Of a stretch of DNA of 63,117 nt, positions 3,703-30,775 are shown piece after piece (positions within the stretch are counted from its first letter, which is position 1; each line of letters starts with the position of its first letter). The DNA lies in NCBI GenBank assembly GCA_024762675.1, contig JANTGZ010000002.1:1-63117 (forward strand), read 5' to 3'. The notes under the pieces were generated by a model. It saw nothing but the letters and a program-made list of their open reading frames with translations. It searched no databases and was not told where the DNA came from. The position numbers and the translations under genes are program-made. Origin of the DNA: Thermodesulfobacteriota bacterium. Its GTDB lineage: Bacteria; Desulfobacterota; Anaeroferrophillalia; Anaeroferrophillales; Tharpellaceae.

Positions 3703-4644
3703 ATGGAACATATTCCGGTTCTTCTAAAAGAGAGTATCGATATCCTCTTGGCCGGTAAAGGGGTTGTCGGTGGCGAAGGAGTGCTTGTTGACGCAACCTT
3801 TGGCGGCGGTGGTCATAGTCGAGGTTTGCTGGAAAGCAGTGCTCCCGGGGTTTCGGTGGTGGCTGTTGATCGTGATCCTGAAGCCGTATTAAGAGGCCAG
3901 GCCCTGATTTCGGAGTTTGCCTATCGTTTCAGGTTGCTGGCGGGGAATTATGCTGATTTGACTCGGTTGCTTGATGATGCCGGGATCGGCAAGATAGATG
4001 GCCTGCTGCTTGATATCGGCCTCTCAAGCTATCAGCTTGAAGAGGGCGGTCGAGGCTTCAGTTTCCAGTCTGAGGGGCCGTTGGATATGCGCATGGATCC
4101 GACAACGGGAGAGCCGGCGGCCATGATTGTCAACCAGGCCGACTGCAAAACCCTGACCAAAATTTTTCGTGATTTTGGAGAAGAGCCCTATGCCGCGGCT
4201 ATCGCTCGTAAGATTGTTGAAAGTCGCTCCCAAAAACCATTTTTGACGACTCGCTCACTGGCGGCCCTGATCGAAGAGATGGTGCCGGTCTACAAACATT
4301 CCCGTCGCCATCCCGCTACCCGAGTTTTCCAGGCTCTACGCATTTCCGTTAATGATGAGCTTAGCGCTCTTAGGCGGGTTCTTGAAGCCGGCCTTGAACG
4401 CCTTGAGTGCGGTGCCCGTATGGTGGTCATCTCCTATCACTCTCTCGAAGATCGTCTGGTCAAACAGGTTTTTCGACAGGCCTCTAAAGGCTGTGTCTGT
4501 CCACCGCGGGTTCCGGTTTGTGGTTGCGGCCAAAAGCAGAGGGTTAAAATTCTGACCGGTCGGGGAGTTCGTCCCCAAGACTCGGAAATAGCTCTCAACC
4601 CTCGTAGCCGCAGTGCATGCTTGCGGGCAATAGAGTTATTGTAG
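3703..4644 (+). CDS. rsmH: 16S rRNA (cytosine1402-N4)-methyltransferase RsmH/MraW
   Basis: MEHIPVLLKESIDIL..., DATFGGGGHS, LLDIGLSSYQLE, GPLDMRMD and ISYHSLEDRLVK are canonical RsmH motifs. ATG at 3703 is preferred to TTG at 3670. Confidence 0.9.
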   Translation: MEHIPVLLKESIDILLAGKGVVGGEGVLVDATFGGGGHSRGLLESSAPGVSVVAVDRDPEAVLRGQALISEFAYRFRLLAGNYADLTRLLDDAGIGKIDGLLLDIGLSSYQLEEGGRGFSFQSEGPLDMRMDPTTGEPAAMIVNQADCKTLTKIFRDFGEEPYAAAIARKIVESRSQKPFLTTRSLAALIEEMVPVYKHSRRHPATRVFQALRISVNDELSALRRVLEAGLERLECGARMVVISYHSLEDRLVKQVFRQASKGCVCPPRVPVCGCGQKQRVKILTGRGVRPQDSEIALNPRSRSACLRAIELL

Positions 4645-6939: not shown

Positions 6940-8418
6940 ATGAGTGAGAAAAGAAATCATTTTTGGAAACTTGGGCAGTTGGCCGACCTGCTTCAGGTGA
7001 AGGCCCTACCGACCTGTCGAGAGCTTGATTTTGATCTGACCGGGGTCACAATTGATAGCCGTAAACTTTGCCCTGGTGAACTTTTTATTGCTTTGCGGGG
7101 TGAGCGTTTCGACGGTCATGATTTTATCGATCAGGTGATTGCTAAAGGGGCTGCAGCGGTGGTGGTTGAAGAGGGGGCCGTAGGGCTTTTGAGTCTGGCT
7201 CAGCGCTATCCGCAGATCCTTTTTCTACCAGTCAAACAAAGTCTTAGTGCCTTGGCGACACTGGCCCAGGCACACCTGGAGAAGGTGGCGCCGGTCGTAA
7301 TTGCAGTGACCGGTTCAAACGGTAAAACAACAACCAAAGAGATGCTGGCACATCTTTTAGCTCCCCATTTTCGGGTTCATAAAACTGCAGGAAACTTCAA
7401 TAACCGGATCGGCCTGCCTTTGACCGTCTTGGCAATGCCGGACGATTGTCAGGTGGTAGTCCTTGAAATGGGTATGAATGAGCCTGGTGAAATTGCCACT
7501 CTGGCAGCCGTGGTGCGACCCGATTATGCTGTTTTGACCAATGTCGCTGCAGCCCATCTTCAGGGTCTGGGTTCTTTAGATGCAGTGGCCCGGGCCAAGT
7601 GTGAGGTGATCAGAGAGATTAAACCGGGCGGCTCTGTGATCTATAATGCTGATGACCCTTATCTTGCGCAAATGGTTCCGGCTGTCGTAAGCGAGCGTGT
7701 GCCAGATGGGATCGCTCTTTTGCCGGTTTCATTGCACGGGGCGTATGGGGAGTCGAGTAATTTAGTTAAAGCTTCGGAGATATGGTTGACTCCAGAGGGA
7801 TTAAGTTTTGTCTTTGTAAAGGGTGGTGAAAACGTGACTGTCAAATTGCCCTGCTGGGGCCGCCATAATGTTATGAATGCGGTTTTGGCCGCCGCCGCCG
7901 GTACTTGTTTGACGGGAGTAACACCTGTTTCTGTCGCCGAGGCATTGCAAAATTTTCAAAATTTGCCCGGCCGACTCGAAAAACATGTTCTTGGAAAAGG
8001 GACAGGAGTTTTGGTTCATGATGCCTATAATGCCAACCCCGATTCTATGGAAGCGGCTTTGACAGCGGTGGCCGAACGGCGGGAAAAGCGTTTCCTGGCG
8101 CTGATTTTAGGCGATATGAATGAGTTAGGTCAGGAGAGCCTATCTTTACACCAACGTATCGGGCGGCGGGTAGCTGAATTGCGACCCGATCTCCTGATTC
8201 TGCTGGGTTGTGCCATCAAAGATCTGGCGGCTGCCGCAAAGGATGCCGGTTTGCCGGCCAAGCGAGTCTTTATTTTTCCGGCAGGAGCTCAAGCTGAGGC
8301 CGTTAAATTATTGCAAGAGCGGCTACCGGCCGAACCTTTAGTGCTGGTTAAGGGGTCACGGGCCCTGGCTTTGGAAAAGATTATTGATCCTCTACTGAAC
8401 TATTTTGAGGCGGCTTGA
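6940..8418 (+). CDS. murF: UDP-MurNAc-tripeptide--D-Ala-D-Ala ligase MurF
   Basis: [49 protein letters not shown] and ILGDMNELG are MurF hallmarks, not MurE ones. ATG at 6940 lies just after the ftsI stop. Confidence 0.85.
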
Positions 8419-9494: not shown

Positions 9495-10894
9495 CACAGG
9501 CACGGATCGATAGCCAAAAGAGAAAGGCTCTGGTCGTCGGTCTTGGAGTCAGCGGAGTTGCTGCAGCCAGGTTTTTACATCTGCAGGGCTGGTTGGTGGC
9601 GGTCAGTGATCAACGTTCTGCGATTGAACTGGAAGAGGTTCTTAAAACTCTGGCCGAAATCGGGATTGCCGATTTTGAGACCGGGGGGCATAGTGAAAAG
9701 TTCTTTCTAAATCGGGATTTGATTGTCGTCAGTCCCGGGGTGCCTTTGGCGTTGCCGATTTTTGAGGTTGCGCGACGAAGCGGTTGCGAGGTTATCGGTG
9801 AAGTTGAGCTTGCGGCACGCCATAGTAGATCCCCACTGGTGGCTTTGACCGGTACTAATGGAAAAACCACAACCGTGACTTTGCTGGGTGAGATTTTTGC
9901 GGCGGCCGGGATTAAGACCTTTGTCGGTGGTAATCTTGGCCGGCCGGCAGTTGAAATGGCGAATGAGCAGTTTGCGTCCGCTATTCTCGAACTCAGCAGT
10001 TTTCAACTCGAAGGCATCGAGAGTTTTCATCCTCGGATCGCAATTGTTTTAAACCTGACTCCCGACCATCAGGATCGTTATCCGGATACAAAAGCCTATC
10101 TTAAGGCCAAAACCGCGATTTGTCGGAATCAGGAGAGACCCGATCTTTTACTGCTTAACCGTGATGATCCGGAACTGGCAGCTTTTGGGGTTCTTATGAA
10201 AACCCGCAGGCAGGCGGGAGAAAATGTACCTGAAATACTCTTTTTTAGTGTTGAGCGCGAAGTCGAAATGGGGGCGAGCTGGTTGGCAGATGAAATAACC
10301 ATCAAGGCAAAATCCCTTGCTGGCAGTAATCTTGAAAGGGAGCTAAAGGCCCCGTTGCCGAAACTGCCGGGTGCCCATAATCGTTCCAATTACTTGGTGG
10401 CTCTGTTGGTGGCTCTGGTTTGGGGGATTAAAAAGGAGATAATCATTTCAACTCTTAATGCCTTTACCGGTATTGCCAATCGACTGGAGTATGTCGGGAG
10501 TCGGGCCGGGGTCGATTTTTACAACGATTCCAAGGCCACCAATATTGATGCAGTGATCAAGGCGGTAAACAGTTTCGACAGACCTCTGGTTCTCTTGTTG
10601 GGAGGTTATGATAAAGGGGCCGATTTTACGGTGCTCGATGGTCTCCTCAAACAAGGTTTGCGCGAGTTGATTCCCTTTGGCCGGGCCGCTAATGAAGTTG
10701 TCCGGCAATTGCCGGCTTACGACAAGGGTTTTAAGGCGCCTGATCTCCAAAGTGCCGTCGACCGGGCCGTGAGCGTGGCCCAATTTGGTGATGTTGTTCT
10801 CCTGGCCCCCGGTTGTGCCAGTTTTGACGAATTCAGGAATTATCAGGAACGCGGTGACGCCTTTCGTGCTCTGGTACGTGAGGCGTCACCGTAG
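9491..10894 (+). CDS. murD: UDP-MurNAc-L-Ala--D-Glu ligase MurD
   Basis: [15 protein letters not shown] Rossmann start and [10 protein letters not shown]-loop. ATG at 9491 overlaps the mraY stop (ATGA) and is preferred to the longer 9437 start. Confidence 0.9.
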
Positions 10895-11984: not shown

Positions 11985-13095
11985 GACAGTTACCCCCGTA
12001 AGGACCATTCTTTTTGCCGGCGGCGGTACTGGTGGGCATCTTTTCCCGGGAATTGCTTTGGCCGAAGAATTTCGCCGCCGGCAGCCGGATACCGAGATTG
12101 TCTTTGCCGGCACCCGGCGTGGGTTGGAGGCCCGAGTAATTCCAGAGCTGGGTTATCCTTTGGTTTTCCTCGAGGTTCATGGGCTAGTGGGTGTCAGGGG
12201 AAGGCGTCGTCTTAAGGCATTGTTCAATTTCCCCAAAGCAGTGATTCAGGCTCTGATTCTCTTGGTCCGTTATCGGCCCTCCCTGGTTGTCGGGCTTGGT
12301 GGTTATGCCAGTGCTCCGGTAATGCTGGCCGCCATAGTCGCCGGGCTGCCATGGGTTTTGCAGGAGCAGAATGCCTTCCCCGGTCTGGTTAACCGGATTC
12401 TGGCGCCTTGGGCTGATGCGGTCTTTATCGCTTTTGCCAAAGCGAAAGAACATCTGCGCAGCCGTAAGGTATACGATTTCGGCAATCCTTTGCGGCTTCA
12501 ACTGCAAAGGCCTGGGAGCTCTGAGGTTTCGTCAGAGGAGATGGCCGCGGAAAAAAGATTTAATATCATGGTCGTCGGTGGCAGTCAGGGTGCCGGGATA
12601 CTTAATCGGGTGGTTCCTTTAGCGCTATCAAGGTTGGCGGAGCGTTACTCTGGATTAAAGGTTGTTCATCAGAGTGGCGTTCATGATTTTTCCGAGGTTG
12701 TAAAAGCTTATGACAGTTTGAGTGGGCGGGCTGAGGTGGCTGAATTTATTAGTGATATAGAATCTTACTACAGAGATGCCGATCTGATTATCTGCCGGGC
12801 TGGGGCCTTGACTCTGGCCGAATTGGGAGCCCTTGGAAAACCGGCAATTCTGGTACCTTTTCCCTATGCTGCTCATGATCACCAGACTTTCAATGCCAAA
12901 GCATTTGCAGATTCAGGGGCAGCTTGGTTGAGGCCTGAAAGTGAATTTGAGAGTCAGTCGCTGGCAGAGGATATTGAACGTCTTATCAATGATCCGCAAA
13001 TCTTGGCCAAGATGGCCGAGGCGGCACTTAAACAGGCGCGGCCCGAAGCTCGGGAGAAGATTGTCGATCGTTGCTTACAGTTGATGTCACAATAA
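11962..13095 (+). CDS. murG: UDP-GlcNAc:lipid I GlcNAc transferase MurG
   Basis: FAGGGTGGHLFPGIALAEE, CRAGALTLAELGALGKPAILVPFP and HQTFNA motifs. Confidence 0.9.
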   Translation: MSVAKLAKTVTPVRTILFAGGGTGGHLFPGIALAEEFRRRQPDTEIVFAGTRRGLEARVIPELGYPLVFLEVHGLVGVRGRRRLKALFNFPKAVIQALILLVRYRPSLVVGLGGYASAPVMLAAIVAGLPWVLQEQNAFPGLVNRILAPWADAVFIAFAKAKEHLRSRKVYDFGNPLRLQLQRPGSSEVSSEEMAAEKRFNIMVVGGSQGAGILNRVVPLALSRLAERYSGLKVVHQSGVHDFSEVVKAYDSLSGRAEVAEFISDIESYYRDADLIICRAGALTLAELGALGKPAILVPFPYAAHDHQTFNAKAFADSGAAWLRPESEFESQSLAEDIERLINDPQILAKMAEAALKQARPEAREKIVDRCLQLMSQ

Positions 13096-13135: not shown

Positions 13136-14515
13136 TTGGTGAAAGGTATGCACCATAAGGTTGAGCGGGTTCATTTTGTCGGCATTGGCGGCAGCGGCAT
13201 GTGCGGTATCGCTGAGGTGTTGCTTAATCTGGGTTATCAGGTGCATGGTTCAGATTTGGCGAAGAGTCCGGTAACCGAACGGCTGGAAGGTATGGGTGCT
13301 CGTATATTCTATGGCCATGATCGGAAAAATGTTGGCGATGTTCAAGTGCTGGTTCGTTCGACAGCAGTGAAAGAAGATAATCCTGAAATCGTTGAGGCCC
13401 ATGCCCGGGCTATCCCGGTTATCCCCCGGGCCGAGATGCTGGCCGAACTGATGCGTCTGAAATATGGTATCGCAGTTGGTGGTACCCACGGCAAAACCAC
13501 TACGACGTCGATGATTGCAACTATGCTCAGTGGTACAGATCTTGACCCGACCGTGGTTATCGGAGGCCGACTCAACAGTATTAACAGTAATGCCTGTCTC
13601 GGAGAGGGAGAGATTCTGGTCGCGGAAGCCGACGAAAGTGATGGCTCATTTCTCGCGTTATCGCCGATTATTGCGATAATAACCAATATCGATCGTGAAC
13701 ATCTCGACTATTATCAGGGTGGCTTAAGTGAAATAGAGGATAACTTTGTCGCCTTTGCCAACAAAGTTCCATTTTACGGGTTGGTTGTCCTTTGTCTTGA
13801 TGATGCCCGGGTTCAGGAGATAATTCCTCGCATCGGGCGTCGGGTTTCGACCTACGGTTTTAACCCTCAGGCTGATGTAAGGGCTATTGAGGTAAAGATC
13901 AAAGGTATGCAGAGTTGTTTTAAGGTACTGGTTAAGGGACGGGAGTTGGGAGAATTTGTTATCGACATGCCGGGCCGCCATTATGTTCTCAACTGCCTGG
14001 CAGCGATTGCAACCGGTTTTGAACTGGGCCTCGAATTTTCCGACATTCGGGAACACCTCTCAGGTTTTGCCGGAGTTCAGCGACGTTTGCAGATTCTTGG
14101 GGAGTTTAAGGGAGCCCTTCTGGTTGATGATTATGGTCACCATCCAACCGAGATTCAGGTGACCCTTGAAGCTCTTCGCCAAGCTTGGCCTGAGAGACGT
14201 CTGGTGGCTCTTTTTCAACCCCATAGATATACGCGTACGCAGCATCTTTTTAATGATTTCCTGGTCGCTTTTAACGAGGCCGATATTCTCGTGGTAACAG
14301 CAATTTATGCCGCCGGAGAGACCCCCATTGATGGCATCAGCGGCGAATTATTAGCTGAAGCAATTCGTCAGCATGGCCATAAGCAGGTCTATTATTGTGC
14401 TGACCGCAAAGCTTTAAAAGCACTTGTTTTAGATCAAGTGCAACCAGCCGATCTTATCTTGACATTGGGTGCCGGAGATATCTGTCGTCTGGGGCAAGAG
14501 CTGGCTGAAGTGTAA
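13136..14515 (+). CDS. murC: UDP-MurNAc--L-Ala ligase MurC
   Basis: VHFVGIGGSGMCGIAEVL, GGTHGKTTTTSM and DDYGHHPTE. The start is ambiguous between TTG 13136, GTG 13139 and ATG 13148. Confidence 0.9.
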   Translation: MVKGMHHKVERVHFVGIGGSGMCGIAEVLLNLGYQVHGSDLAKSPVTERLEGMGARIFYGHDRKNVGDVQVLVRSTAVKEDNPEIVEAHARAIPVIPRAEMLAELMRLKYGIAVGGTHGKTTTTSMIATMLSGTDLDPTVVIGGRLNSINSNACLGEGEILVAEADESDGSFLALSPIIAIITNIDREHLDYYQGGLSEIEDNFVAFANKVPFYGLVVLCLDDARVQEIIPRIGRRVSTYGFNPQADVRAIEVKIKGMQSCFKVLVKGRELGEFVIDMPGRHYVLNCLAAIATGFELGLEFSDIREHLSGFAGVQRRLQILGEFKGALLVDDYGHHPTEIQVTLEALRQAWPERRLVALFQPHRYTRTQHLFNDFLVAFNEADILVVTAIYAAGETPIDGISGELLAEAIRQHGHKQVYYCADRKALKALVLDQVQPADLILTLGAGDICRLGQELAEV

Positions 14516-14876: not shown

Positions 14877-15791
14877 TTGATTAGCGAAGAACAGAAAGAT
14901 GAGTTGCGTCGGCATTTGGCAGGGTTCCTGATTGAGGAAGAGCCTCTGGCGTTGAAAACTGCTTTCAAGATTGGTGGCGCCGCAGCTTTTTATCTGCAAC
15001 CTGAAACTTTAGAGGATCTCGAACTGACCCTGCGAACTTTAGCAGAGTTGGAGCTGCAATTTGTGATTCTTGGCGGTGGTTGTAATATTCTGGTTGCCGA
15101 CGCAGGGATTCGAGACCAGGTGGTGATCGACCTTGGCAAAGGTTTCAGGCATCTTGAGGTTGTTGGCTCTGACTTCTGGTCGGCAATGCTCAGGGTCGAA
15201 TGCGGAGTTCATATCTCCCAGTTGATTAAACTGAGTGAAGTTGAAGGGTATGGTGGGCTCGAAAAGCTGGCTGGCATTCCGGGAACTGTCGGCGGGGCTC
15301 TGGCTATGAACGCCGGGGCTTATGATGCTACGATCTATGACTGTCTCGGAGCCCTTCAGATTATGGAAAAAGATGGGCTTGTTTGGCGGAGCGCGTCGCA
15401 CTTTAAGCCGAGTTATCGCGATGGTGGTTTGGCGCCGGGGCAGGTACTGATCGCAGCCTATTTTCTGCTTGAACGCAGAGCTCATGTTGAGATTACAACG
15501 GAAATTGCCAGGATTAAGGATTTGCGACGGCAGCGCCTGCCGCGCGGAGCTCATGCCGGTTCGGTATTTAAAAATCCGGCTGGAGATTTTGCCGGTCGTC
15601 TTCTAGAAGAGTCCGGTTGCAAGGGGATGCGTTGCGGGGGCGCATATGTTTCTGAAGAGCATGCCAACGTTATCGTCGCGGACAAGGGTTCACGAGCTGA
15701 TGAGGTTATGGCCCTGATGGAGAGTATGCAGGCCCGGGTATGCGATCGTCATGGGGTCAATCTCGAACCGGAGATCAAGATATACTCTTGA
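14877..15791 (+). CDS. murB: UDP-N-acetylenolpyruvoylglucosamine reductase MurB
   Basis: 304 aa. FAD-binding FKIGGAAAFY..ILGGGCNILV, IPGTVGGALAMNAGAY, and GSVFKNP near the C-terminus. TTG start. Confidence 0.85.
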   Translation: MISEEQKDELRRHLAGFLIEEEPLALKTAFKIGGAAAFYLQPETLEDLELTLRTLAELELQFVILGGGCNILVADAGIRDQVVIDLGKGFRHLEVVGSDFWSAMLRVECGVHISQLIKLSEVEGYGGLEKLAGIPGTVGGALAMNAGAYDATIYDCLGALQIMEKDGLVWRSASHFKPSYRDGGLAPGQVLIAAYFLLERRAHVEITTEIARIKDLRRQRLPRGAHAGSVFKNPAGDFAGRLLEESGCKGMRCGGAYVSEEHANVIVADKGSRADEVMALMESMQARVCDRHGVNLEPEIKIYS

Positions 15792-15803
15792 CCAAGAGAG
15801 GTA

Positions 15804-16736
15804 GTGATGAAATTTGCGCGGAATACAAGGATTGGGGTACTCTATGGCGGACTCTCTGCCGAGCGCGAGGTTTCACTTAAAAGTGGTAAGGCGGTAGGTT
15901 TGGCCCTGCAGGAGCTGGGCTACCTGGTGACCCTGATTGATGTTGACCGCCAGGTTGTTGAACGACTTAAAGAGTCTCGGGTTGAAGCGGTTTTTATCGC
16001 ACTGCATGGGGCTTATGGAGAGGATGGCTCGATTCAGGGGGTTTTGGAATATCTTAAGATTCCCTATACCGGTCCCGGGGTAATGGGTAGCAGTATCGCC
16101 ATGAATAAGGTTATGAGCAAAAGGGTTCTGCTCTCACACAATATTCCGACCCCCGATTATACTGTGCCAGATGTGGATGAAGCTGAGATCGCGGTGCCGC
16201 CGGGCGGTTATCCTCTGGTAGTAAAGCCGGTGGGCGAGGGTTCAAGTCTTGGCTTAAGTATTGTTGCTGATGCTGAACAGTTGCCTGAAGCCTTGGTTAA
16301 GGCTCGTGAATATAGTCGACAGGTGATGATTGAGAGCTATATTCCTGGGCTTGAATTGACTGCAGCGATTTTAGGTGGCGAAGCTCTGCCGTTGATTGAA
16401 ATTAGAGCCCGGGGCGGAGTATACGATTATCAGGCTAAATATACCAAAGGCTACACTGAGTATCTGGTACCGGCCCCGGTAGCTCCGGATATCACCCGAA
16501 GGGTAAAGGATCTGGCTAAATCAAGCGCCCGGGCTTTGGGGTGTACGCGGGGAGCGGTGCGGGTCGATTTTCGTCTTGATATGAAGAACCGGCCCTATGT
16601 GATTGAAGTCAATACGGTGCCGGGGATGACGGAAACCAGCCTCCTGCCGCAGGCTGCAGAGGCTGCGGGGATTGACTTTATAACGTTAATAGATCGCATT
16701 CTTCAAGGTGCCGGTCTTGATCTTGCCCCGTTCTGA
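15804..16736 (+). CDS. ddl: D-alanine--D-alanine ligase
   Basis: 310 aa. VLYGGLSAEREVSL, ALHGAYGEDGSIQG, ATP-grasp VVKPVGEGSSLG, and EVNTVPGMTETSLLP. Confidence 0.9.
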   Translation: MMKFARNTRIGVLYGGLSAEREVSLKSGKAVGLALQELGYLVTLIDVDRQVVERLKESRVEAVFIALHGAYGEDGSIQGVLEYLKIPYTGPGVMGSSIAMNKVMSKRVLLSHNIPTPDYTVPDVDEAEIAVPPGGYPLVVKPVGEGSSLGLSIVADAEQLPEALVKAREYSRQVMIESYIPGLELTAAILGGEALPLIEIRARGGVYDYQAKYTKGYTEYLVPAPVAPDITRRVKDLAKSSARALGCTRGAVRVDFRLDMKNRPYVIEVNTVPGMTETSLLPQAAEAAGIDFITLIDRILQGAGLDLAPF

Positions 16737-17628
16737 TAAGAGTAAGCGGCGTGTACGGATTAGCAATAGTCGTAAAGATGTCCGGCGTGCCCGTCGTCCG
16801 AATTCCAAGAGTGTTAACCGTAAACTCTTGTTGTTTTTGGCGTTTGCTTGTCTTTGCGGGCTTGGTAGTGGAGCTTTGTGGCTCTGGTGGCCGACACTCG
16901 TAACCAGTGTCGATGGATGGTTCAAAGGGCGGGACGGATTTCTGGTCAAAGAGGTTATCGTACAGGGTAACTTTCGCAGCTCCCGTCAGGATATAATTAA
17001 GGCCCTGGGCCTGGCCCCACGGCAATTGATCTTTACCTTTGATCTCAAGCAAGTCCAGAATCGGGTGAATGCCCTGCCTTTTGTCAGGGAGACCCAGATT
17101 CATCGGCGCTGGCCTGACCGTCTTGAAATTATGGTAACAGAACGCCGCCCCAAAGCTCTTTTCTATCTTGACGAACTTTACCTGGTCGATCGGGATGGGG
17201 GGTTGATTGCTCCGGCACCCAAAAATGAGATGCTCGATTTTCCACTCATCAGCGGAGCTTCGGTGACCCAGTGGCAAAATCAACCGGAGGTCTGGATTAG
17301 GTTGTTGAAAAAAGCTCTTACTCTACTCTCTATATGGGAGAAAAGGGGCCGGGATTGGCCCGAAAAAGTTGCCCAGGTTGGGCTTGATGAGGTTTGCGGG
17401 GTAACTGTTTTTACCACCGATAAGGCCTGGGAGTTGCAATTGGGATTAGAGGGTTTTGACGAGCGTCTTAAGCGTTGGCGGCAGGTCTTAGAGGTGCTCG
17501 GGGAGAGAGCGATGGCAGTAAGTTATTTTGATTGTGCCGGGACCGATACGGTAGTGGCCGGCCTTAGGCCGCATCCCAAGGGTACTTTTTCTGAGAAGCT
17601 CAGAGCGCAAACAGATGGCGTCGATTAG
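16708..17628 (+). CDS. ftsQ: Cell division protein FtsQ
   Basis: Basic N-terminus, one TM helix, then POTRA-like VKEVIVQGNFRSSRQDI. Position between ddl and ftsA fits FtsQ. The start (GTG 16708, overlapping ddl) is uncertain. Confidence 0.75.
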   Translation: MPVLILPRSDKSKRRVRISNSRKDVRRARRPNSKSVNRKLLLFLAFACLCGLGSGALWLWWPTLVTSVDGWFKGRDGFLVKEVIVQGNFRSSRQDIIKALGLAPRQLIFTFDLKQVQNRVNALPFVRETQIHRRWPDRLEIMVTERRPKALFYLDELYLVDRDGGLIAPAPKNEMLDFPLISGASVTQWQNQPEVWIRLLKKALTLLSIWEKRGRDWPEKVAQVGLDEVCGVTVFTTDKAWELQLGLEGFDERLKRWRQVLEVLGERAMAVSYFDCAGTDTVVAGLRPHPKGTFSEKLRAQTDGVD

Positions 17629-27095: not shown

Positions 27096-27290
27096 TTTTA
27101 CACTTCGGGGTGTAGCGAAAAAATCTGATCAGAGCGCAAGCTAAAGATCTGTCCCAGCTCCGCCGGGTTAGAGTGTAACAATCAACTCTACCAAAATAAT
27201 TACAATTTCACTGCCAAACAGCAAAAACTGCCCTTTTGTTACATTGTCGCTGAGAAGGTCAGGCTGGAAGAAATTGGTTGTAAAGAGACA

Positions 27291-27345
27291 TTTCCAATGG
27301 CAATGTTAAATTGCTACTTTTCTCCAGAGATTTGAAAGCAAGCGG
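27291..27345. repeat. Degenerate copy (A0) of the A-repeat core
   Basis: CCAATGGCAAT...CTACTTTTCTCCAGAGATTTGA resembles the A1 core CCAATGGCAATCTCTACTTTTCAGCCAG...TAGAGATTGA, with a 9-nt insertion. It lies ~80 nt 3' of the tail-fibre-like gene. Confidence 0.4.
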
Positions 27346-27421
27346 GGAAAAGATCTGAAAACCACCAAATTCGTACAGGCAATACTGATCCTGAGGTGAT
27401 TGGCTAGTCACAAGTTTCCAT

Positions 27422-29080
27422 TCAGCTTGCACCATCCTGATTATGTTCTTGTATCAATTTCTTGAGACTTTCTTTCAGAGTATCGATTTCTTTACGCTGT
27501 TCTTCAAGCCTTCTCTGTTGTTCTTTCATCCCCTCCAGAAGAACCGGGATAAGCTGGATGTATTCAACCGATTTATAACCCTTGGCATCCGTGTTAACCA
27601 ACTCTGGCAGAACTTTTTCCACCTCCTGGGCGATAAATCCCAACTGGCGACCTTGAGCAAACCAACGATCAGGGAACTTATCCTTACGCCATTGAAAACT
27701 GACGCCCTCAAGTGCTTGAATTTTCTCTAGAGCATTTTCAATGGGATCTATCTCTTTTTTTAAACGGCGATCAGAAGGGCTGCTGATACTTGAAATTTCA
27801 AGCGTTCCATTAACCCGAAGTAAATCGTGGTCAAACTCTCCGTAGACAAGTGGCGTTAAAGTATTACTGTTATCAATATATAGCTTGTTTGAGCCTGTTT
27901 CATTCCCCCCAGCTAGATACCCAACAAAAACATTGCCAGCACCACTTGTATTGTTGTTCCCGGCAAACGCCCCTAAAAATGTGTTAAGTGATCCTGATGT
28001 GTTCTTGAGTCCGGCTTCGTGACCTAAGAAACAATTGTACATTGCGCCCGAAACTACTTTTCCAGCTCGGGAGCCAAGCAGTGTGTTGCCAAAATATGGA
28101 TGGTCCATCCCGGCTTCAAAACCCATGCAAACATTGTAAGATCCATCAGCAGAATCTCGGCCGGCATCGACACCGACATAGGTATTCCACTTTCCAGTAG
28201 TATTGTCATTGCCGGCCACCGCTCCGACGAAGGTATTACGATGTCCAGTAGTATTTTTTTCCCCGGCTTGTGCTCCAAGAAAAGTATTATAATCCCCGGT
28301 TATGTTATTTTGTCCTGATCCATCACCAATAAAAGTATTCAATTGTCCCGAAGTCGTTTTGTTCCCAGCACCATAACCAAAGAACGAATTGTAGAGTCCA
28401 CCAGAATTAACATCCAAAGAATCACCAGCATAAATGCCAAAAAAGGTATTATTAAAAGTCTCCCCTTCTATTGTTCCCCGGAGCAAGGGCGTGGTCTCAC
28501 TCTCCGTAGTCAAAACACCACTAACGTCAGTTTGTTGATTTTCAAAAAGATCATGCATTAAAGTAGTAAAAGTTAGTAGCCCAGAATCAGAAGTCATTTC
28601 ACCGGCATTGAAAGCCTTAATTTCGTCTGATAAAGCCTTGTCAAAAAGACCGATTGTCTGAGCTGGATCTATCTTGAAAAAAGCTCCTTGCGACCAAGGC
28701 CCGACACCCAGTTCATCATAGGCCTGCACGTACCAGACGTATGTATTACCGGACTTCAGGCCGGTATCAACTGAACCGGGTATCCAAGTCGTGGCGGGTG
28801 CAGGAATAAGCGCCTGTAAAACCGGTTCAGACTGAACCTGCATCTCATCGTAACTGATGAAATTCTCATCTTCCACCTGAAAAATCCTGATTTTATATCC
28901 CTGAGTATCACTATCTGCCGACCAGCTGAAAGTAGGTCGGCAACTTTCGCAGACAGCCACACCTTCGGACAAAACCGGTGAGACAGGTATTACTTCTGCA
29001 GAACTTGCTGAAATGGTTCCTGAAAAGCAAAATATCAACAATAAACAAAACATTTTGAAACTGTAGATTCGATATCTCAT
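27422..29080 (-). CDS. Secreted tail-fibre-domain protein with C-terminal S74 intramolecular-chaperone domain
   Basis: 552 aa with a signal peptide and an Fn3-like N-domain. Many NTF.G..AG..NT.G-type repeats. C-terminal SDRRLKKEIDPIENALEKIQALEGVSFQW...GFIAQEVEKVLPELV is typical of the endosialidase-chaperone (peptidase S74) domain, followed by a coiled coil. Confidence 0.75.
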   Translation of the reverse strand: MRYRIYSFKMFCLLLIFCFSGTISASSAEVIPVSPVLSEGVAVCESCRPTFSWSADSDTQGYKIRIFQVEDENFISYDEMQVQSEPVLQALIPAPATTWIPGSVDTGLKSGNTYVWYVQAYDELGVGPWSQGAFFKIDPAQTIGLFDKALSDEIKAFNAGEMTSDSGLLTFTTLMHDLFENQQTDVSGVLTTESETTPLLRGTIEGETFNNTFFGIYAGDSLDVNSGGLYNSFFGYGAGNKTTSGQLNTFIGDGSGQNNITGDYNTFLGAQAGEKNTTGHRNTFVGAVAGNDNTTGKWNTYVGVDAGRDSADGSYNVCMGFEAGMDHPYFGNTLLGSRAGKVVSGAMYNCFLGHEAGLKNTSGSLNTFLGAFAGNNNTSGAGNVFVGYLAGGNETGSNKLYIDNSNTLTPLVYGEFDHDLLRVNGTLEISSISSPSDRRLKKEIDPIENALEKIQALEGVSFQWRKDKFPDRWFAQGRQLGFIAQEVEKVLPELVNTDAKGYKSVEYIQLIPVLLEGMKEQQRRLEEQRKEIDTLKESLKKLIQEHNQDGAS

Positions 29081-29135
29081 ACATAACCCCCTTTTTATTG
29101 TGTTTACTTCCCAGATTCACCCTGTATCTACTAAC

Positions 29136-29163
29136 ATAATATCGCAAATATTCAGGCAGTCAA
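29136..29163 (-). promoter_or_regulatory. Candidate sigma70 promoter of the tail-fibre-like gene
   Basis: Minus strand: TTGACT (29163-29158), a 16-nt spacer, then TATTAT (29141-29136). It lies ~55 nt upstream of the ATG at 29080, which has a GGGGG Shine-Dalgarno sequence. Confidence 0.45.
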
Positions 29164-29182
29164 CAAGCTTTACTTACCGTTC

Positions 29183-29291
29183 ACAAAAAAAGACAACCAA
29201 GCTGCTCTTTAAAATAAGCAACTCGGCTGTCTTTGATGCTTTTAGAAACAAGACCCGTGGTTTTCCGACCCTGCCTTTCGACAAGTGTGGC
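29183..29291 (-). ncRNA. Structured RNA element B1 (GEMM-I-like features, ends in an intrinsic terminator)
   Basis: Minus strand: GCCACACTTGTCGAAAGGCAGGGTCGGAAAACCACGGGTCTTG...AAAGACAGCCGAGTTGC...GCAGCTTGGTTGTCTTTTTTTGTG. It has a GAAA-tetraloop hairpin (29270-29285) and a ~17-bp terminator stem (29188-29234) followed by a T7 run. It is a paralogue of B2, with compensatory changes in the tetraloop stem. Confidence 0.55.
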
Positions 29292-29356
29292 TTTTTCAGT
29301 TATTCATTTGATTCTACATACAATCATTAGGCATAAAGCAGTATAAAAAGCAATGC

Positions 29357-29509
29357 CTATTTTCTGATTTTAACTCAAAACACAACCTACCAAACAAGTG
29401 AGGTATGCGTCAAATATACCCAATGGCAATCTCTACTTTTCAGCCAGCCCGCAAAATAGAGATTGATCGTAAATCTTTTTTAATCACAAGCCTTATTTAA
29501 AAGCAATAA
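29357..29509. repeat. A-repeat unit A1 (~153 bp)
   Basis: Hairpin GGTAT(29402-06)/ATACC(29416-20). Core arms CAATCTCTA(29427-35)/TAGAGATTG(29457-65), with interleaved TGGC/GCCA. Confidence 0.7.
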
Positions 29510-29663
29510 CTATTTTGGGACTTATGCTTAAAAAATAATTCAGCAAATAGGTGCGGTACCTCTTATAAGGTATCCACTGGCAATCTCTACTTTTCTGCCA
29601 GCCTGTAATGTAGAGATTCATCGTAACCATTTCTTATCACATATCACAGATCGATGCAATGAT
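29510..29663. repeat. A-repeat unit A2 (~154 bp)
   Basis: Head-to-tail with A1. Hairpin GGTACCT/AGGTATC (29555-29574). CTGGCA(29577-82)/TGCCAG(29596-601) is interleaved with AATCTCTAC(29582-90)/GTAGAGATT(29610-18). Confidence 0.75.
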
Positions 29664-29785
29664 TATTTTGCGATTTATACTTGATAAATAATTTGGTAAA
29701 CAGGTGCGGTATTCCTCGAATATATCCACTGGCAATCACAACATTCTTGCCAAACAACAAGCTTAACATTCATCGTAATAGGATG
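29664..29785. repeat. A-repeat unit A3 (3' part degenerate)
   Basis: The 5' part aligns with A2 (TTATTTTGCGATTTATACTTGATAAATAATTTGGTAAACAGGTGCGGTA...). Its hairpin is TATTC/GAATA, covarying with A2. TGGCAA/TTGCCA is retained, but the second stem has decayed. Confidence 0.65.
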
Positions 29786-29810
29786 TTTGCAATGTCTTAT
29801 TTTGAATCAC

Positions 29811-30110
29811 TTAATGCAAGCGACTATGCCACTTTTGGGGATCTTTTGCAGTATGAAAAACACTATAAATTGTTACTTTTTCATCTAGATGTTCGTAGAA
29901 TATAGCATAAGGAAATCGCCTCAACAATGCTCGGCGGTATTCTTCATGAACCTTCACGTAAATCTCTGGCGTACGAATTATTGCTTGAATACAAGCTTCC
30001 ATACAAGACAAAAACTCCTCCCCCAAACCAGGACGTCGTTCCTCATACCAGGAATATGCCTCATCAATATCCCGCTTTACCTCAGGAGCTATTATTAAAT
30101 CAACGGCCAT
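29811..30110 (-). CDS. Type II toxin, ParE/RelE family
   Basis: ~99 aa from ATG 30110: MAVDLIIAPEVKRDIDEAYSWYEE...RRFPYAIFYEHLDEKVTIYSVFH. It overlaps the upstream antitoxin gene by 11 nt. Confidence 0.8.
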   Translation of the reverse strand: MAVDLIIAPEVKRDIDEAYSWYEERRPGLGEEFLSCMEACIQAIIRTPEIYVKVHEEYRRALLRRFPYAIFYEHLDEKVTIYSVFHTAKDPQKWHSRLH

Positions 30111-30330
30111 AACGACTACGAACCTGACGCTTAACTTCATCCCATGAAAGATTCGACGCCGTGCTCTTCATCAAGTTGGATTTTCGTCTTGCCAGTTCTT
30201 TTTTTTGCCACTCATGCACTGGTACTGATGAAGGGTTAGCTGCCAAATCATCCCACAGATCTTCAACTAATTGAAGTTTTTCAGGCGGGCTCAAATCAAA
30301 AATTGATATAGTATTTAAATTCATTTTCAC
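30100..30330 (-). CDS. Type II antitoxin (putative addiction-module component, Unstab_antitox-like)
   Basis: 76 aa. LSPPEKLQLVEDLWDDLAANP...WQKKELARR...W.EVK pattern. Its position directly upstream of the ParE/RelE gene fits an antitoxin. Confidence 0.7.
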   Translation of the reverse strand: MKMNLNTISIFDLSPPEKLQLVEDLWDDLAANPSSVPVHEWQKKELARRKSNLMKSTASNLSWDEVKRQVRSRYGR

Positions 30331-30412
30331 CTCCGAGTAAAAATCGAAACATTTGGCATTACAAAGAAATAAGGTTTGCTCGTAAACTCGCCTGTGACAA
30401 TATCAATTAAAC

Positions 30413-30475
30413 TTGCTAATGGCAACCTCAACCTTTACGCCAAATTGCCAGTTTGAGATTGATCGTAAGAACCTT
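30413..30475. repeat. A-repeat core copy A4
   Basis: AATGGCAACCTCAACCTTTACGCCAAATTGCCAGTTTGAGATTGATCGTAAGA. TGGCAA/TTGCCA is interleaved with CCTCAA/TTGAGATT, and it shares the GATTGATCGTAA tail with A1. Confidence 0.6.
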
Positions 30476-30492
30476 ATTTCGAGTCACCGCTC

Positions 30493-30602
30493 ACAAAAAA
30501 AGACAGCTAAGCTGCTCTTTATTAAAGAGGCAACCCGGCTGTCTTTTAGGTTTTGGAGACAAGACCCGTGGCTTTCCGACCCCGTCTTTCGGCGGGAGTG
30601 GC
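30493..30602 (-). ncRNA. Structured RNA element B2 (paralogue of B1, ends in an intrinsic terminator)
   Basis: Minus strand: GCCACTCCCGCCGAAAGACGGGGTCGGAAAGCCACGGGTCTTGTCTCC...AAAAGACAGCCGGGTTGCCTCTTTAATAAAGAGCAGCTTAGCTGTCTTTTTTTGTG. Tetraloop hairpin at 30581-30596; terminator at 30498-30546 plus a T7 run. A possible promoter lies just upstream: TTGTGC, 17 nt, TAGATA. Confidence 0.55.
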
Positions 30603-30660
30603 GTTTACAATTATCTAAGATAGCCACTTTATAAGCACAAGCAACAACTCTTAGCAACAC

Positions 30661-30775
30661 CTATTTTGCGATTTATACCTTTCAGATAACTTATCAAATA
30701 GATGCGGCATCCCGGAGGTGTCCACAGGTAATCTCTTCTTTTTAACCAGACCCCAAAGTAGAGATTCATTCTTTA
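30661..30775. repeat. A-repeat unit A5
   Basis: CTATTTTGCGATTTATACC...AGATGCGGCATCCCGGAGGTGTCCACAGGTAATCTCTTC...GTAGAGATTCATTC aligns with A2 and A3. Its hairpin is CATC/GGTG, a third covarying version. Confidence 0.65.

Follow-up and report, generated by a model that had tools for sequence, protein, structure and literature searches.

To our knowledge, capture and reordering of single-gene cassettes are well established for a single system, the integron, whose defining elements are the integrase IntI and folded attC sites. An attC site is 57 to 141 bp long, has the motifs RYYYAAC (R'') and GTTRRRY (R') as its outer ends, and is cut between the G and TT of the latter motif. The structure of attC sites is kept while their sequence varies, and their paired R and L boxes carry extrahelical bases. 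Here, we analyzed a window of 63,117 nucleotides, meaning the whole stretch of DNA under study, from a hydrothermal-vent metagenome (run X1), in which a 59-bp core sequence occurs in five copies. We propose, with a probability of roughly 0.64, that this core is a DNA recombination site bounding swappable gene cassettes in an integron-like system, and that the corresponding integrase is a Xer-like enzyme of the Desulfobulbales. This reading is based on the anatomy of the core, its occurrence in arrays, the adjacency of an integrase gene in three loci, the homologous sites upstream of related integrase genes, and switches of the sequence joined to the right box of the core.

All five cores in the window lie on the plus strand, with start-to-start distances of 154, 152, 690, and 306 nt. 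A repeat search delimited them as a 66-nt family starting at positions 29417, 29571, 29723, 30413, and 30719, with 62 to 82% identity to the first copy (A1), and nhmmer detected them with E values of 2e-14 to 2e-10. Core A1 (29414 to 29472; E 2e-14) consists of the left box TGGCAA-TCTCTAC, a 19-nt spacer, the arm ATAGAGATT, and the right box GATCGTAA. A2 (29568 to 29626) was recovered both by nhmmer and by the gapless family alignment described below. A3 (29720 to 29778; E 1.4e-10) has a degenerate arm and an intact right box CATCGTAA. A4 (30410 to 30468; E 1.2e-13) stands without a leader, and A5 (30716 to 30774; E 2e-10) carries a degenerate right box, CATTCTTT instead of CATCGTAA. Tandem Repeats Finder reported nothing at A1 to A3, because the copies are less than 70% alike. 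A second family of ∼87 nt was found by the repeat search directly 5' of four of the five cores. The A unit is composite, comprising the 59-bp core and a ∼90-nt leader with a short hairpin. The leader of A1 (29320 to 29405, plus strand) holds the AT-rich part and the 5' hairpin arm, and the other leader copies are located at 29474 to 29558, 29626 to 29711, and 30624 to 30709, giving four in the window. An nhmmer model built from these four copies found those four only and none in ∼110 related loci. The core is therefore the sole part of the A unit that recurs outside the window, the AT-rich leader and the hairpin being locus specific.

The initial annotation of this DNA, made from the sequence alone, had listed copies A0 to A5 of a three-part unit, i.e., an AT-rich 5' part, a hairpin, and a core ending in GATT(G/C)ATCGTAA. 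Copies A1 to A5 were confirmed on the plus strand, and the end motif occurs four times in the window, compared to 0.5 occurrences expected by chance. A0 (27291 to 27345, plus strand) is doubtful: it consists of a left half only (AATGGCAATGTTAAAT), lacks the right box, and did not reach significance (E 0.19 to 6.3). It is similar to left-half-only sites found 3' of the integrase gene in three related loci (L063, L067, and L130). The core, the leader, and the short hairpins can each be read in the window, the latter two being confined to the four leader-bearing copies.

Alignment of 28 family copies from 13 contigs was gapless over 77 columns and yielded the core consensus A.ATt.C.A.TGGCAAyCTCAAC-N19-GTTGAGATT(C/G)ATCGTAA, the end of which can also be written (g/c)TTGAGATT(c/g)ATCGTAA. 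The core thus begins with the left box TGGCAA-YCTCAAC, continues with 19 bp of variable spacer and the inverted arm GTTGAGATT, and closes with the invariant right box (C/G)ATCGTAA; the distance from TGGCAA to GAGATT is exactly 29 nt in all copies. Information content is 1.4 to 2.0 bits at the last 16 positions of the core (alignment positions 53 to 68) and at most 0.3 bits from position 69 on; i.e., conservation stops abruptly directly 3' of CGTAA. YCTCAAC occupies positions 26 to 32 and GTTGAGA positions 52 to 58, with conserved TGGCAA and TT(S)ATCGTAA outside both. The ends of the core, ATATCCAC.. and ..CATCGTAA, are not mutually inverted, and the inverted repeat is internal. Its geometry, with two 9-bp arms 19 bp apart, is unusual for the core site of a tyrosine recombinase. 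The arm GTTGAGATT together with (C/G)ATCGTA would suit one Xer/dif half-site plus the center; an arm to the right of ATCGTAA was weakly enriched (4.9 versus 4.2 matches of 9), by a measure that is biased. When the core was compared by eye with the consensus spacings of sigma-54, ECF, and sigma-70 promoters, none of these readings fitted.

If each core is taken as the right end of a unit, the array in the window divides into five putative cassettes, flanked on both sides by rhodanese genes on the minus strand. The first, c1 (∼27244 to 29472), ends with A1 and contains a gene on the minus strand (27422 to 29080) for a secreted, tail-fiber-like protein of 552 amino acids with a Peptidase_S74 intramolecular chaperone domain (PF13884, E 1.6e-19). 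Upstream of this S74 gene lies a c-di-GMP-I-GGC riboswitch aptamer with a terminator (B1; 29213 to 29300, minus strand; RF03167, 64.7 bits versus a gathering threshold of 59), which is followed by the leader and the core. Both c2 (29473 to 29626, 154 bp), with A2 at its right end, and c3 (29627 to 29778, 152 bp), which ends with A3, are devoid of open reading frames (ORFs). The fourth, c4 (29779 to 30468, 690 bp), carries a toxin-antitoxin pair on the minus strand, namely a ParE-family toxin (29811 to 30140; PF05016, E 9.6e-10) and an antitoxin of the Unstab_antitox type (30100 to 30330; PF09720, E 1.6e-15), and is closed by A4. In c5 (30469 to 30774, 306 bp), which also lacks an ORF, a second aptamer of the same class with its terminator (B2; 30525 to 30611, minus strand; RF03167, 64.7 bits) precedes a leader and A5. 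Since the first ∼90 nt of c1 are common to c2, c3, and c5, these three are probably nested truncated copies of a riboswitch-plus-S74-type cassette such as c1. A5, which lies beside the chromosomal rhodanese gene and to which that gene appears fixed, looks like the terminal junction of the array, with its degenerate right box. On the minus strand, riboswitch B2 and its terminator are followed by core A4 and then by the toxin-antitoxin operon. Read-through at B2 at high ligand levels could possibly drive the neighboring c4, which would make c5 a possible regulatory cassette.

Related copies were sought in several collections. A first pattern scan of species-representative genomes gave 46 matches, about the number expected by chance, of which the loci L019 and L026 alone were genuine. 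In metagenomes, a fixed-gap scan yielded 19 contigs, on which further copies were identified by nhmmer, and no core match was present in viral contigs. L019 has a ∼70% identical core in the same position as A4, beside a toxin-antitoxin pair; of this pair, ParE is 33% identical to that of the window and the antitoxin is unrelated, so that conservation of the core does not depend on the cargo. Arrays of cores in a single orientation were found on other contigs: five cores on one strand in L063 (at 209, 4395, 7078, 8498, and 10654), five in one orientation in L067 (at 963, 2365, 4693, 7277, and 9693), three in L059, and two each in L055 and L048. The cores of these arrays are 1 to 4 kb apart and are separated by unrelated single genes or short operons, encoding, among others, DUF6994, EEP nuclease, MopE-repeat, fn3, CHAP-Lcl, and Fib_succ proteins, a methyltransferase, an alcohol dehydrogenase, and a TPR-MshEN protein. 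Nearly all cargo genes are antisense to the core (∼23 genes versus 1), the exception being a sense gene between the two cores of L055. In the related loci, the core separates the terminator of a gene from the promoter-like region of the following gene. Read on the gene strand, a hairpin with a T-run terminating the preceding gene lies just before the core in several loci, and a TTGAC box lies ∼20 nt past it in several loci as well, forming a good promoter (TTGACT-N18-TATAAT) in L060. A c-di-GMP riboswitch lies between core and gene twice in the window and also in L067 and L130. tRNA genes were observed in L059 (9878 to 9950, ∼116 nt past the last core at 9686 to 9762) and in L130 (6797 to 6869, ∼700 nt before a left-half site at 7553), and some arrays may be anchored at tRNA genes. 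A few kilobases from its array, L067 also contains a group II intron (15661 to 17512; Rfam D1-D4 and domain V-VI matches) with a reverse-transcriptase ORF.

In three independent loci (L063, L067, and L130), a tyrosine recombinase gene is located 3' of the last full core and shares its orientation, followed by the left-half-only site mentioned above. The integrase gene of L063 (3470 to 4285, minus strand) starts ∼100 nt after the core at 4395; as it points in the direction of the core, it is divergent from the cargo. In L067, which belongs to the same assembly as L019, the gene lies 3' of the core at 9693. In L130, a metagenome-assembled Desulfobulbaceae genome, a full core (9851 to 9906) is followed by the integrase gene (10001 to 10835), a left-half-only site (10928), an antisense gene of 913 amino acids with a riboswitch, and another full core (13908 to 13973). 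Within the 63-kb window, tblastn found no integrase gene. Relatives of the L063 integrase numbered 4455 at an E value of 1e-10 or better, most of them ∼278 amino acids long and many on contigs of 1 to 3 kb. Among species representatives, the family is represented by 477 loci, nearly all in Desulfobulbales and with several copies per genome, and it is also found in the cultured Desulfopila sp. IMCC35008, Desulfosediminicola flagellatus, and Desulfogranum marinum.

The integrase matches PF00589 (E 1.9e-19), and its catalytic residues R142, K165, H224, R227, H251, and Y260, i.e., the R-K-H-R-H-Y set of tyrosine recombinases, are invariant in eight homologues. Against the integron integrase model TIGR02249 it scored 54 bits (cutoff, 265), aligned over residues 13 to 182 only, and it lacks the IntI-specific insertion. 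The best curated model was that of XerA-like proteins (NF040815, 118 bits versus 220), and its relatives in the PDB were XerA and XerD and included no IntI. The linked enzyme is thus a Xer-like tyrosine recombinase and not IntI. Many related integrase genes have a homologous site, TGGCA(A/G)..AAC-N-GTTnA..TTCCTGA, ∼145 nt upstream of their start. A strict pattern recovered it from 8 of 68 loci, where 0.6 would be expected, and a site of this kind can be seen in roughly half of them. The left box and the arm of this site are as in the core, and the right box differs (TTCCTGA), as would be expected of related recombinases with diverged crossover sequences. Direct repeats of ∼85 nt of the TTCCTGA type (4080 to 4165 and 12884 to 12970, ∼93% identical) flank an integrase gene and 7.7 kb, including genes for EcsC, an MFS transporter, and a TRAP transporter, in L070; judged from this arrangement, the segment has the appearance of an integrated element belonging to this recombinase family. 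At about codons 19 to 21 (4230 to 4260 in L063), the integrase gene contains a homopolymer that is in frame as A8 (..NSKKNT..), the form seen in P0018 and P0011, which are full length. Variants carry A9 (L066, L067, and L075), A10 (L078), an extra C (L063), or A7 with loss of the start (L076). Because of these variants, many database products of the family are cut to 224 to 256 amino acids. The homopolymer looks like a phase-variable or slippage-controlled switch.

Variation within natural populations was examined by comparing Logan contigs from X1 and from two other vent samples, X2 and X3. Contigs of X1 and X3 are identical to the window through position 29626, the last A of CATCGTAA in A2, and then continue in either of two ways with sequence absent from the window. 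Contigs of X1 and X2, conversely, match the window exactly from 29616 onward, and what lies ahead of that point is the left part of another core, ..TCAACTTTTCCACCAGCCAGGATTGATAAC joined directly to ATTCATCGTAA. The partner switch is thereby placed inside the 11-nt right box of A2 (29616 to 29626), equivalent to alignment positions 58 to 68. An assembly unitig break was also found inside the right box of A1, at 29466. Logan contigs extend 30 letters past a break, so that allelic variants are indistinguishable from paralogous copies in these comparisons. Sequencing depth was ∼10 to 12 for the S74 cassette (12.4), A1, and the start of the antitoxin gene with A4, compared to 20.5 to 23 for the chromosome flanks. 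The partner switches and the cassette depths together indicated that cassette content is polymorphic, with the 11-nt right box as the switch point. A5 is not polymorphic, because it lies with the rhodanese gene on one unitig of chromosomal depth (21.7). Between L053 and L067, the core and the 72 nt to its left are 96% identical, and this similarity stops exactly at CGTAA.

Two further candidates were rejected. L058 and L059 do not form a clean junction, since similarity of ∼60% continues past CGTAA in BLAST; the core is better conserved there than either flank, and conservation is not one-sided. Two joints in X1 (29212 to 30524 and 29303 to 29788) that could have been taken for core-to-core deletions are due to the B1/B2 repeat and to a second toxin-antitoxin haplotype. 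No direct recombination product, i.e., a circle or an empty site, was observed in the Logan contigs. At the left end of the array, the assemblies of four runs branch at the 30-mer 27244 to 27273, and the variable segment starts at 27244. The end of the S74 cassette (27244 to 27433) is also joined to a different left flank, ATCCAACGCTGAGCTCTTGCGTAGTCCAAG, which is absent from the genome collection. An 844-nt unitig (depth, 10.6) ends at the same point. A second ParE/antitoxin haplotype (29819 to 30170), of about equal depth (21 of 42) and with ∼30 substitutions over ∼350 nt is present in the source metagenome. Exact lookups of the S74 protein and of ParE led to no sequence beyond the source unitig. 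The conserved part of the c-di-GMP-I-GGC aptamer (30549 to 30605) reached a summed contig depth of >400 in the source metagenome, compared to ∼21 for the chromosome, and this riboswitch class is therefore very abundant in the vent community.

The initial annotation had favored a multicopy structured noncoding RNA, or else a single strand in folded form, that would combine a hairpin with an H-type pseudoknot and whose covarying stems would reflect selection on structure. The interleaved stems can be drawn in the window copies, RNAalifold predicted an 11-pair hairpin for the four leaders, and three of its pairs are changed on both sides among these four related copies (none outside the window). 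In addition, CGGCAA/TTGCCG in L055 versus TGGCAA/TTGCCA in A3 and A4 provides a single compensatory example. Over the 28 copies, however, the pseudoknot stem S1 is not conserved, with 48% of cells paired, and S2 reaches 70% because it is the conserved inverted repeat. The combined S1+S2 structure is paired in 61.0% of cells, compared to 60.3% after shuffling (137 of 500 shuffles were equal or higher), and the covariation score of 0.111 versus 0.099 was reached by 72 of 500 shuffles, revealing no covariation beyond column composition. Wobble-compatible mismatches (16 versus 13) favor neither strand, and single-sequence folds of the A units are ordinary (z, +0.9 to −2.6). In agreement with the remark in the annotation that no known RNA family fits, Rfam gave no match to the units on either strand even up to an E value of 5 and recognized the neighboring riboswitches only. 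Moreover, the locus was in none of the RNA runs searched. What is conserved is the sequence and not the structure; the structured-RNA reading is not supported, and we regard it as very unlikely. The same property speaks against ordinary integron attC sites in a cluster without an IntI gene (CALIN). It is true that a site of 59 bp has a size possible for attC, that the cores form direct repeats of two to five copies in one orientation, that YCTCAAC agrees with RYYYAAC, and GTTGAGA with GTTRRRY, at 6 of 7 positions, and that toxin-antitoxin and ORF-less cassettes are present in the array. Yet the AAC and GTT motifs are internal, 19 nt apart, with conserved sequence beyond both sides, and the junction falls 4 to 14 nt 3' of GTT, with switches at positions 58 to 68. 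Pairing is at the level of shuffled sequences, no L boxes are identifiable, and the linked integrase remains far below the IntI cutoff, with no match to a solved IntI structure. Hence, we consider attC sites highly improbable.

A role in transcription has more in its favor, and a transcriptional element would also be compatible with the strict orientation that the core shows toward genes. The core could be the upstream binding site of a dimeric transcription factor or activator of an accessory-gene regulon, with the tandem units as duplicated promoter regions. It lies 60 to 350 nt upstream of gene starts with near-fixed polarity, contains an inverted repeat, and is followed in several loci by the TTGAC box and in L060 by the promoter described above. 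We nevertheless judge this explanation unlikely, as such a site would have to be kept over 59 bp at 65 to 90% before unrelated genes in different organisms and to end abruptly on one side. Tandem copies without a gene, the sense gene between the two L055 cores, the partner switches at the right box in natural populations, the recombinase gene beside the core in three loci, and the homologous sites upstream of related recombinase genes all point away from it. The annotation had also suggested a mobile DNA element and advised a search for an associated recombinase. This search was productive, as a tyrosine recombinase gene adjoins the array in the three loci above, and the DNA alternative held insofar as the core behaves as a site-specific recombination site; the MITE-like form of it did not, since terminal inverted repeats are absent. 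A small nonautonomous repeat of the MITE or REP/REPIN type, with a transposase or Y1 enzyme elsewhere and no cassette-bounding role, would account for multicopy, short, intergenic sequences with hairpin potential. It would not account for a fixed length with one sharp and one soft end, one orientation throughout an array, a regular spacing by whole genes, or the association with a tyrosine recombinase, and an unsystematic look gave no sign of target duplications. This explanation therefore seems quite improbable to us. Several points count against the cassette reading itself: the window holds no integrase gene, the contigs showed neither a circle nor an empty site, the arm geometry is unusual, the L058/L059 comparison is not one-sided, and the circles of ∼153 bp that would arise from the ORF-less units are very small for excision.

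On the recombination-site reading, which we prefer, direct-orientation cores would mark cassette borders, so that each cassette would end on the plus strand with its own core and carry its cargo on the opposite strand. The cognate enzyme would be the ∼278-amino-acid Xer-like tyrosine recombinase family of the Desulfobulbales, subunits of which are predicted to bind the inverted arms and to exchange strands within the ATCGTAA block. Recombination between two direct sites would excise a circle with one site, which could reenter at any resident site, and cassettes might in this way be gained, lost, and reordered. They would be self-expressed from their own promoters, some of them under control of a c-di-GMP riboswitch. 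The window, which lacks an integrase gene over its 63 kb, would then represent a five-cassette array that either is supplied with the enzyme in trans or has been orphaned recently. At somewhat less than even odds, we further suggest that the Desulfobulbales possess a second, independently evolved integron-like capture system, characterized by a Xer-derived integrase, an A8/A9/A10 homopolymer acting as an on/off switch, self-expressing cassettes, including purely regulatory ones (promoter plus c-di-GMP riboswitch), and a double-stranded 59-bp site. In a full-text search of the literature, the coverage of which is incomplete and which thus gives a weak negative, no description of such a system was found. 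If it exists, platforms for cassettes have arisen at least twice in evolution, in this case from another recombinase clade and with another kind of site, and the search space for them would be wider, as tools of the IntegronFinder type would probably miss this one. It would also help to account for accessory-gene turnover in the Desulfobulbales of vents and sediments, an order to which cable bacteria belong. Two of its traits would be novel among cassette systems: the promoter and c-di-GMP riboswitch that cassettes bring with them, with riboswitch-only units standing before other cassettes, and the homopolymer switch within the gene of the integrase. The relatives in cultured strains make the system testable.

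Compared with integrons, the arrays described here share single-gene cassettes, sites of ∼60 bp in one orientation, a tyrosine recombinase gene at one end and divergent from the cargo, toxin-antitoxin and ORF-less cassettes, some arrays without an integrase, and a cassette content that varies within the population. In contrast to integrons, the integrase is Xer-like and ∼278 amino acids long, and the site, which is conserved in sequence and not in structure, occupies the end of each cassette that is nearest the promoter. Several cassettes appear to have their own promoter, riboswitch, and terminator, which would remove the dependence on a common promoter, and the integrase-proximal site is an ordinary core instead of a distinct attI. 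A second group of relatives comprises Xer/dif and the elements exploiting it, namely IMEX and the pdif modules of Acinetobacter plasmids, since XerA, XerD, and XerC are the nearest solved or curated relatives of the integrase and short sites there, too, bound discrete modules, including toxin-antitoxin pairs. Unlike dif (28 to 31 bp, with 11-bp arms and a 6- to 8-bp center), the core has two 9-bp arms 19 bp apart and a separate invariant 8-bp block. All sites are direct, whereas those of pdif modules are inversely oriented, and the enzyme is a multicopy accessory gene product, unlike housekeeping Xer. Site-specific accretion, as in tandem islands, cis-mobilizable elements, and tycheposon-like arrays, likewise produces direct att-type repeats by serial integration and units that lack an integrase and are mobilizable in trans, and it is matched by the integrase and 7.7 kb between 85-nt direct repeats in L070. 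The units described here differ from it in being integron sized (0.15 to 2.7 kb, with one gene or none), and the site in the window is not a tRNA 3' end, although a tRNA gene adjoins the L059 array. By analogy, accretion of integrative elements is probably the nearest mechanism, operating here at the scale of integrons.
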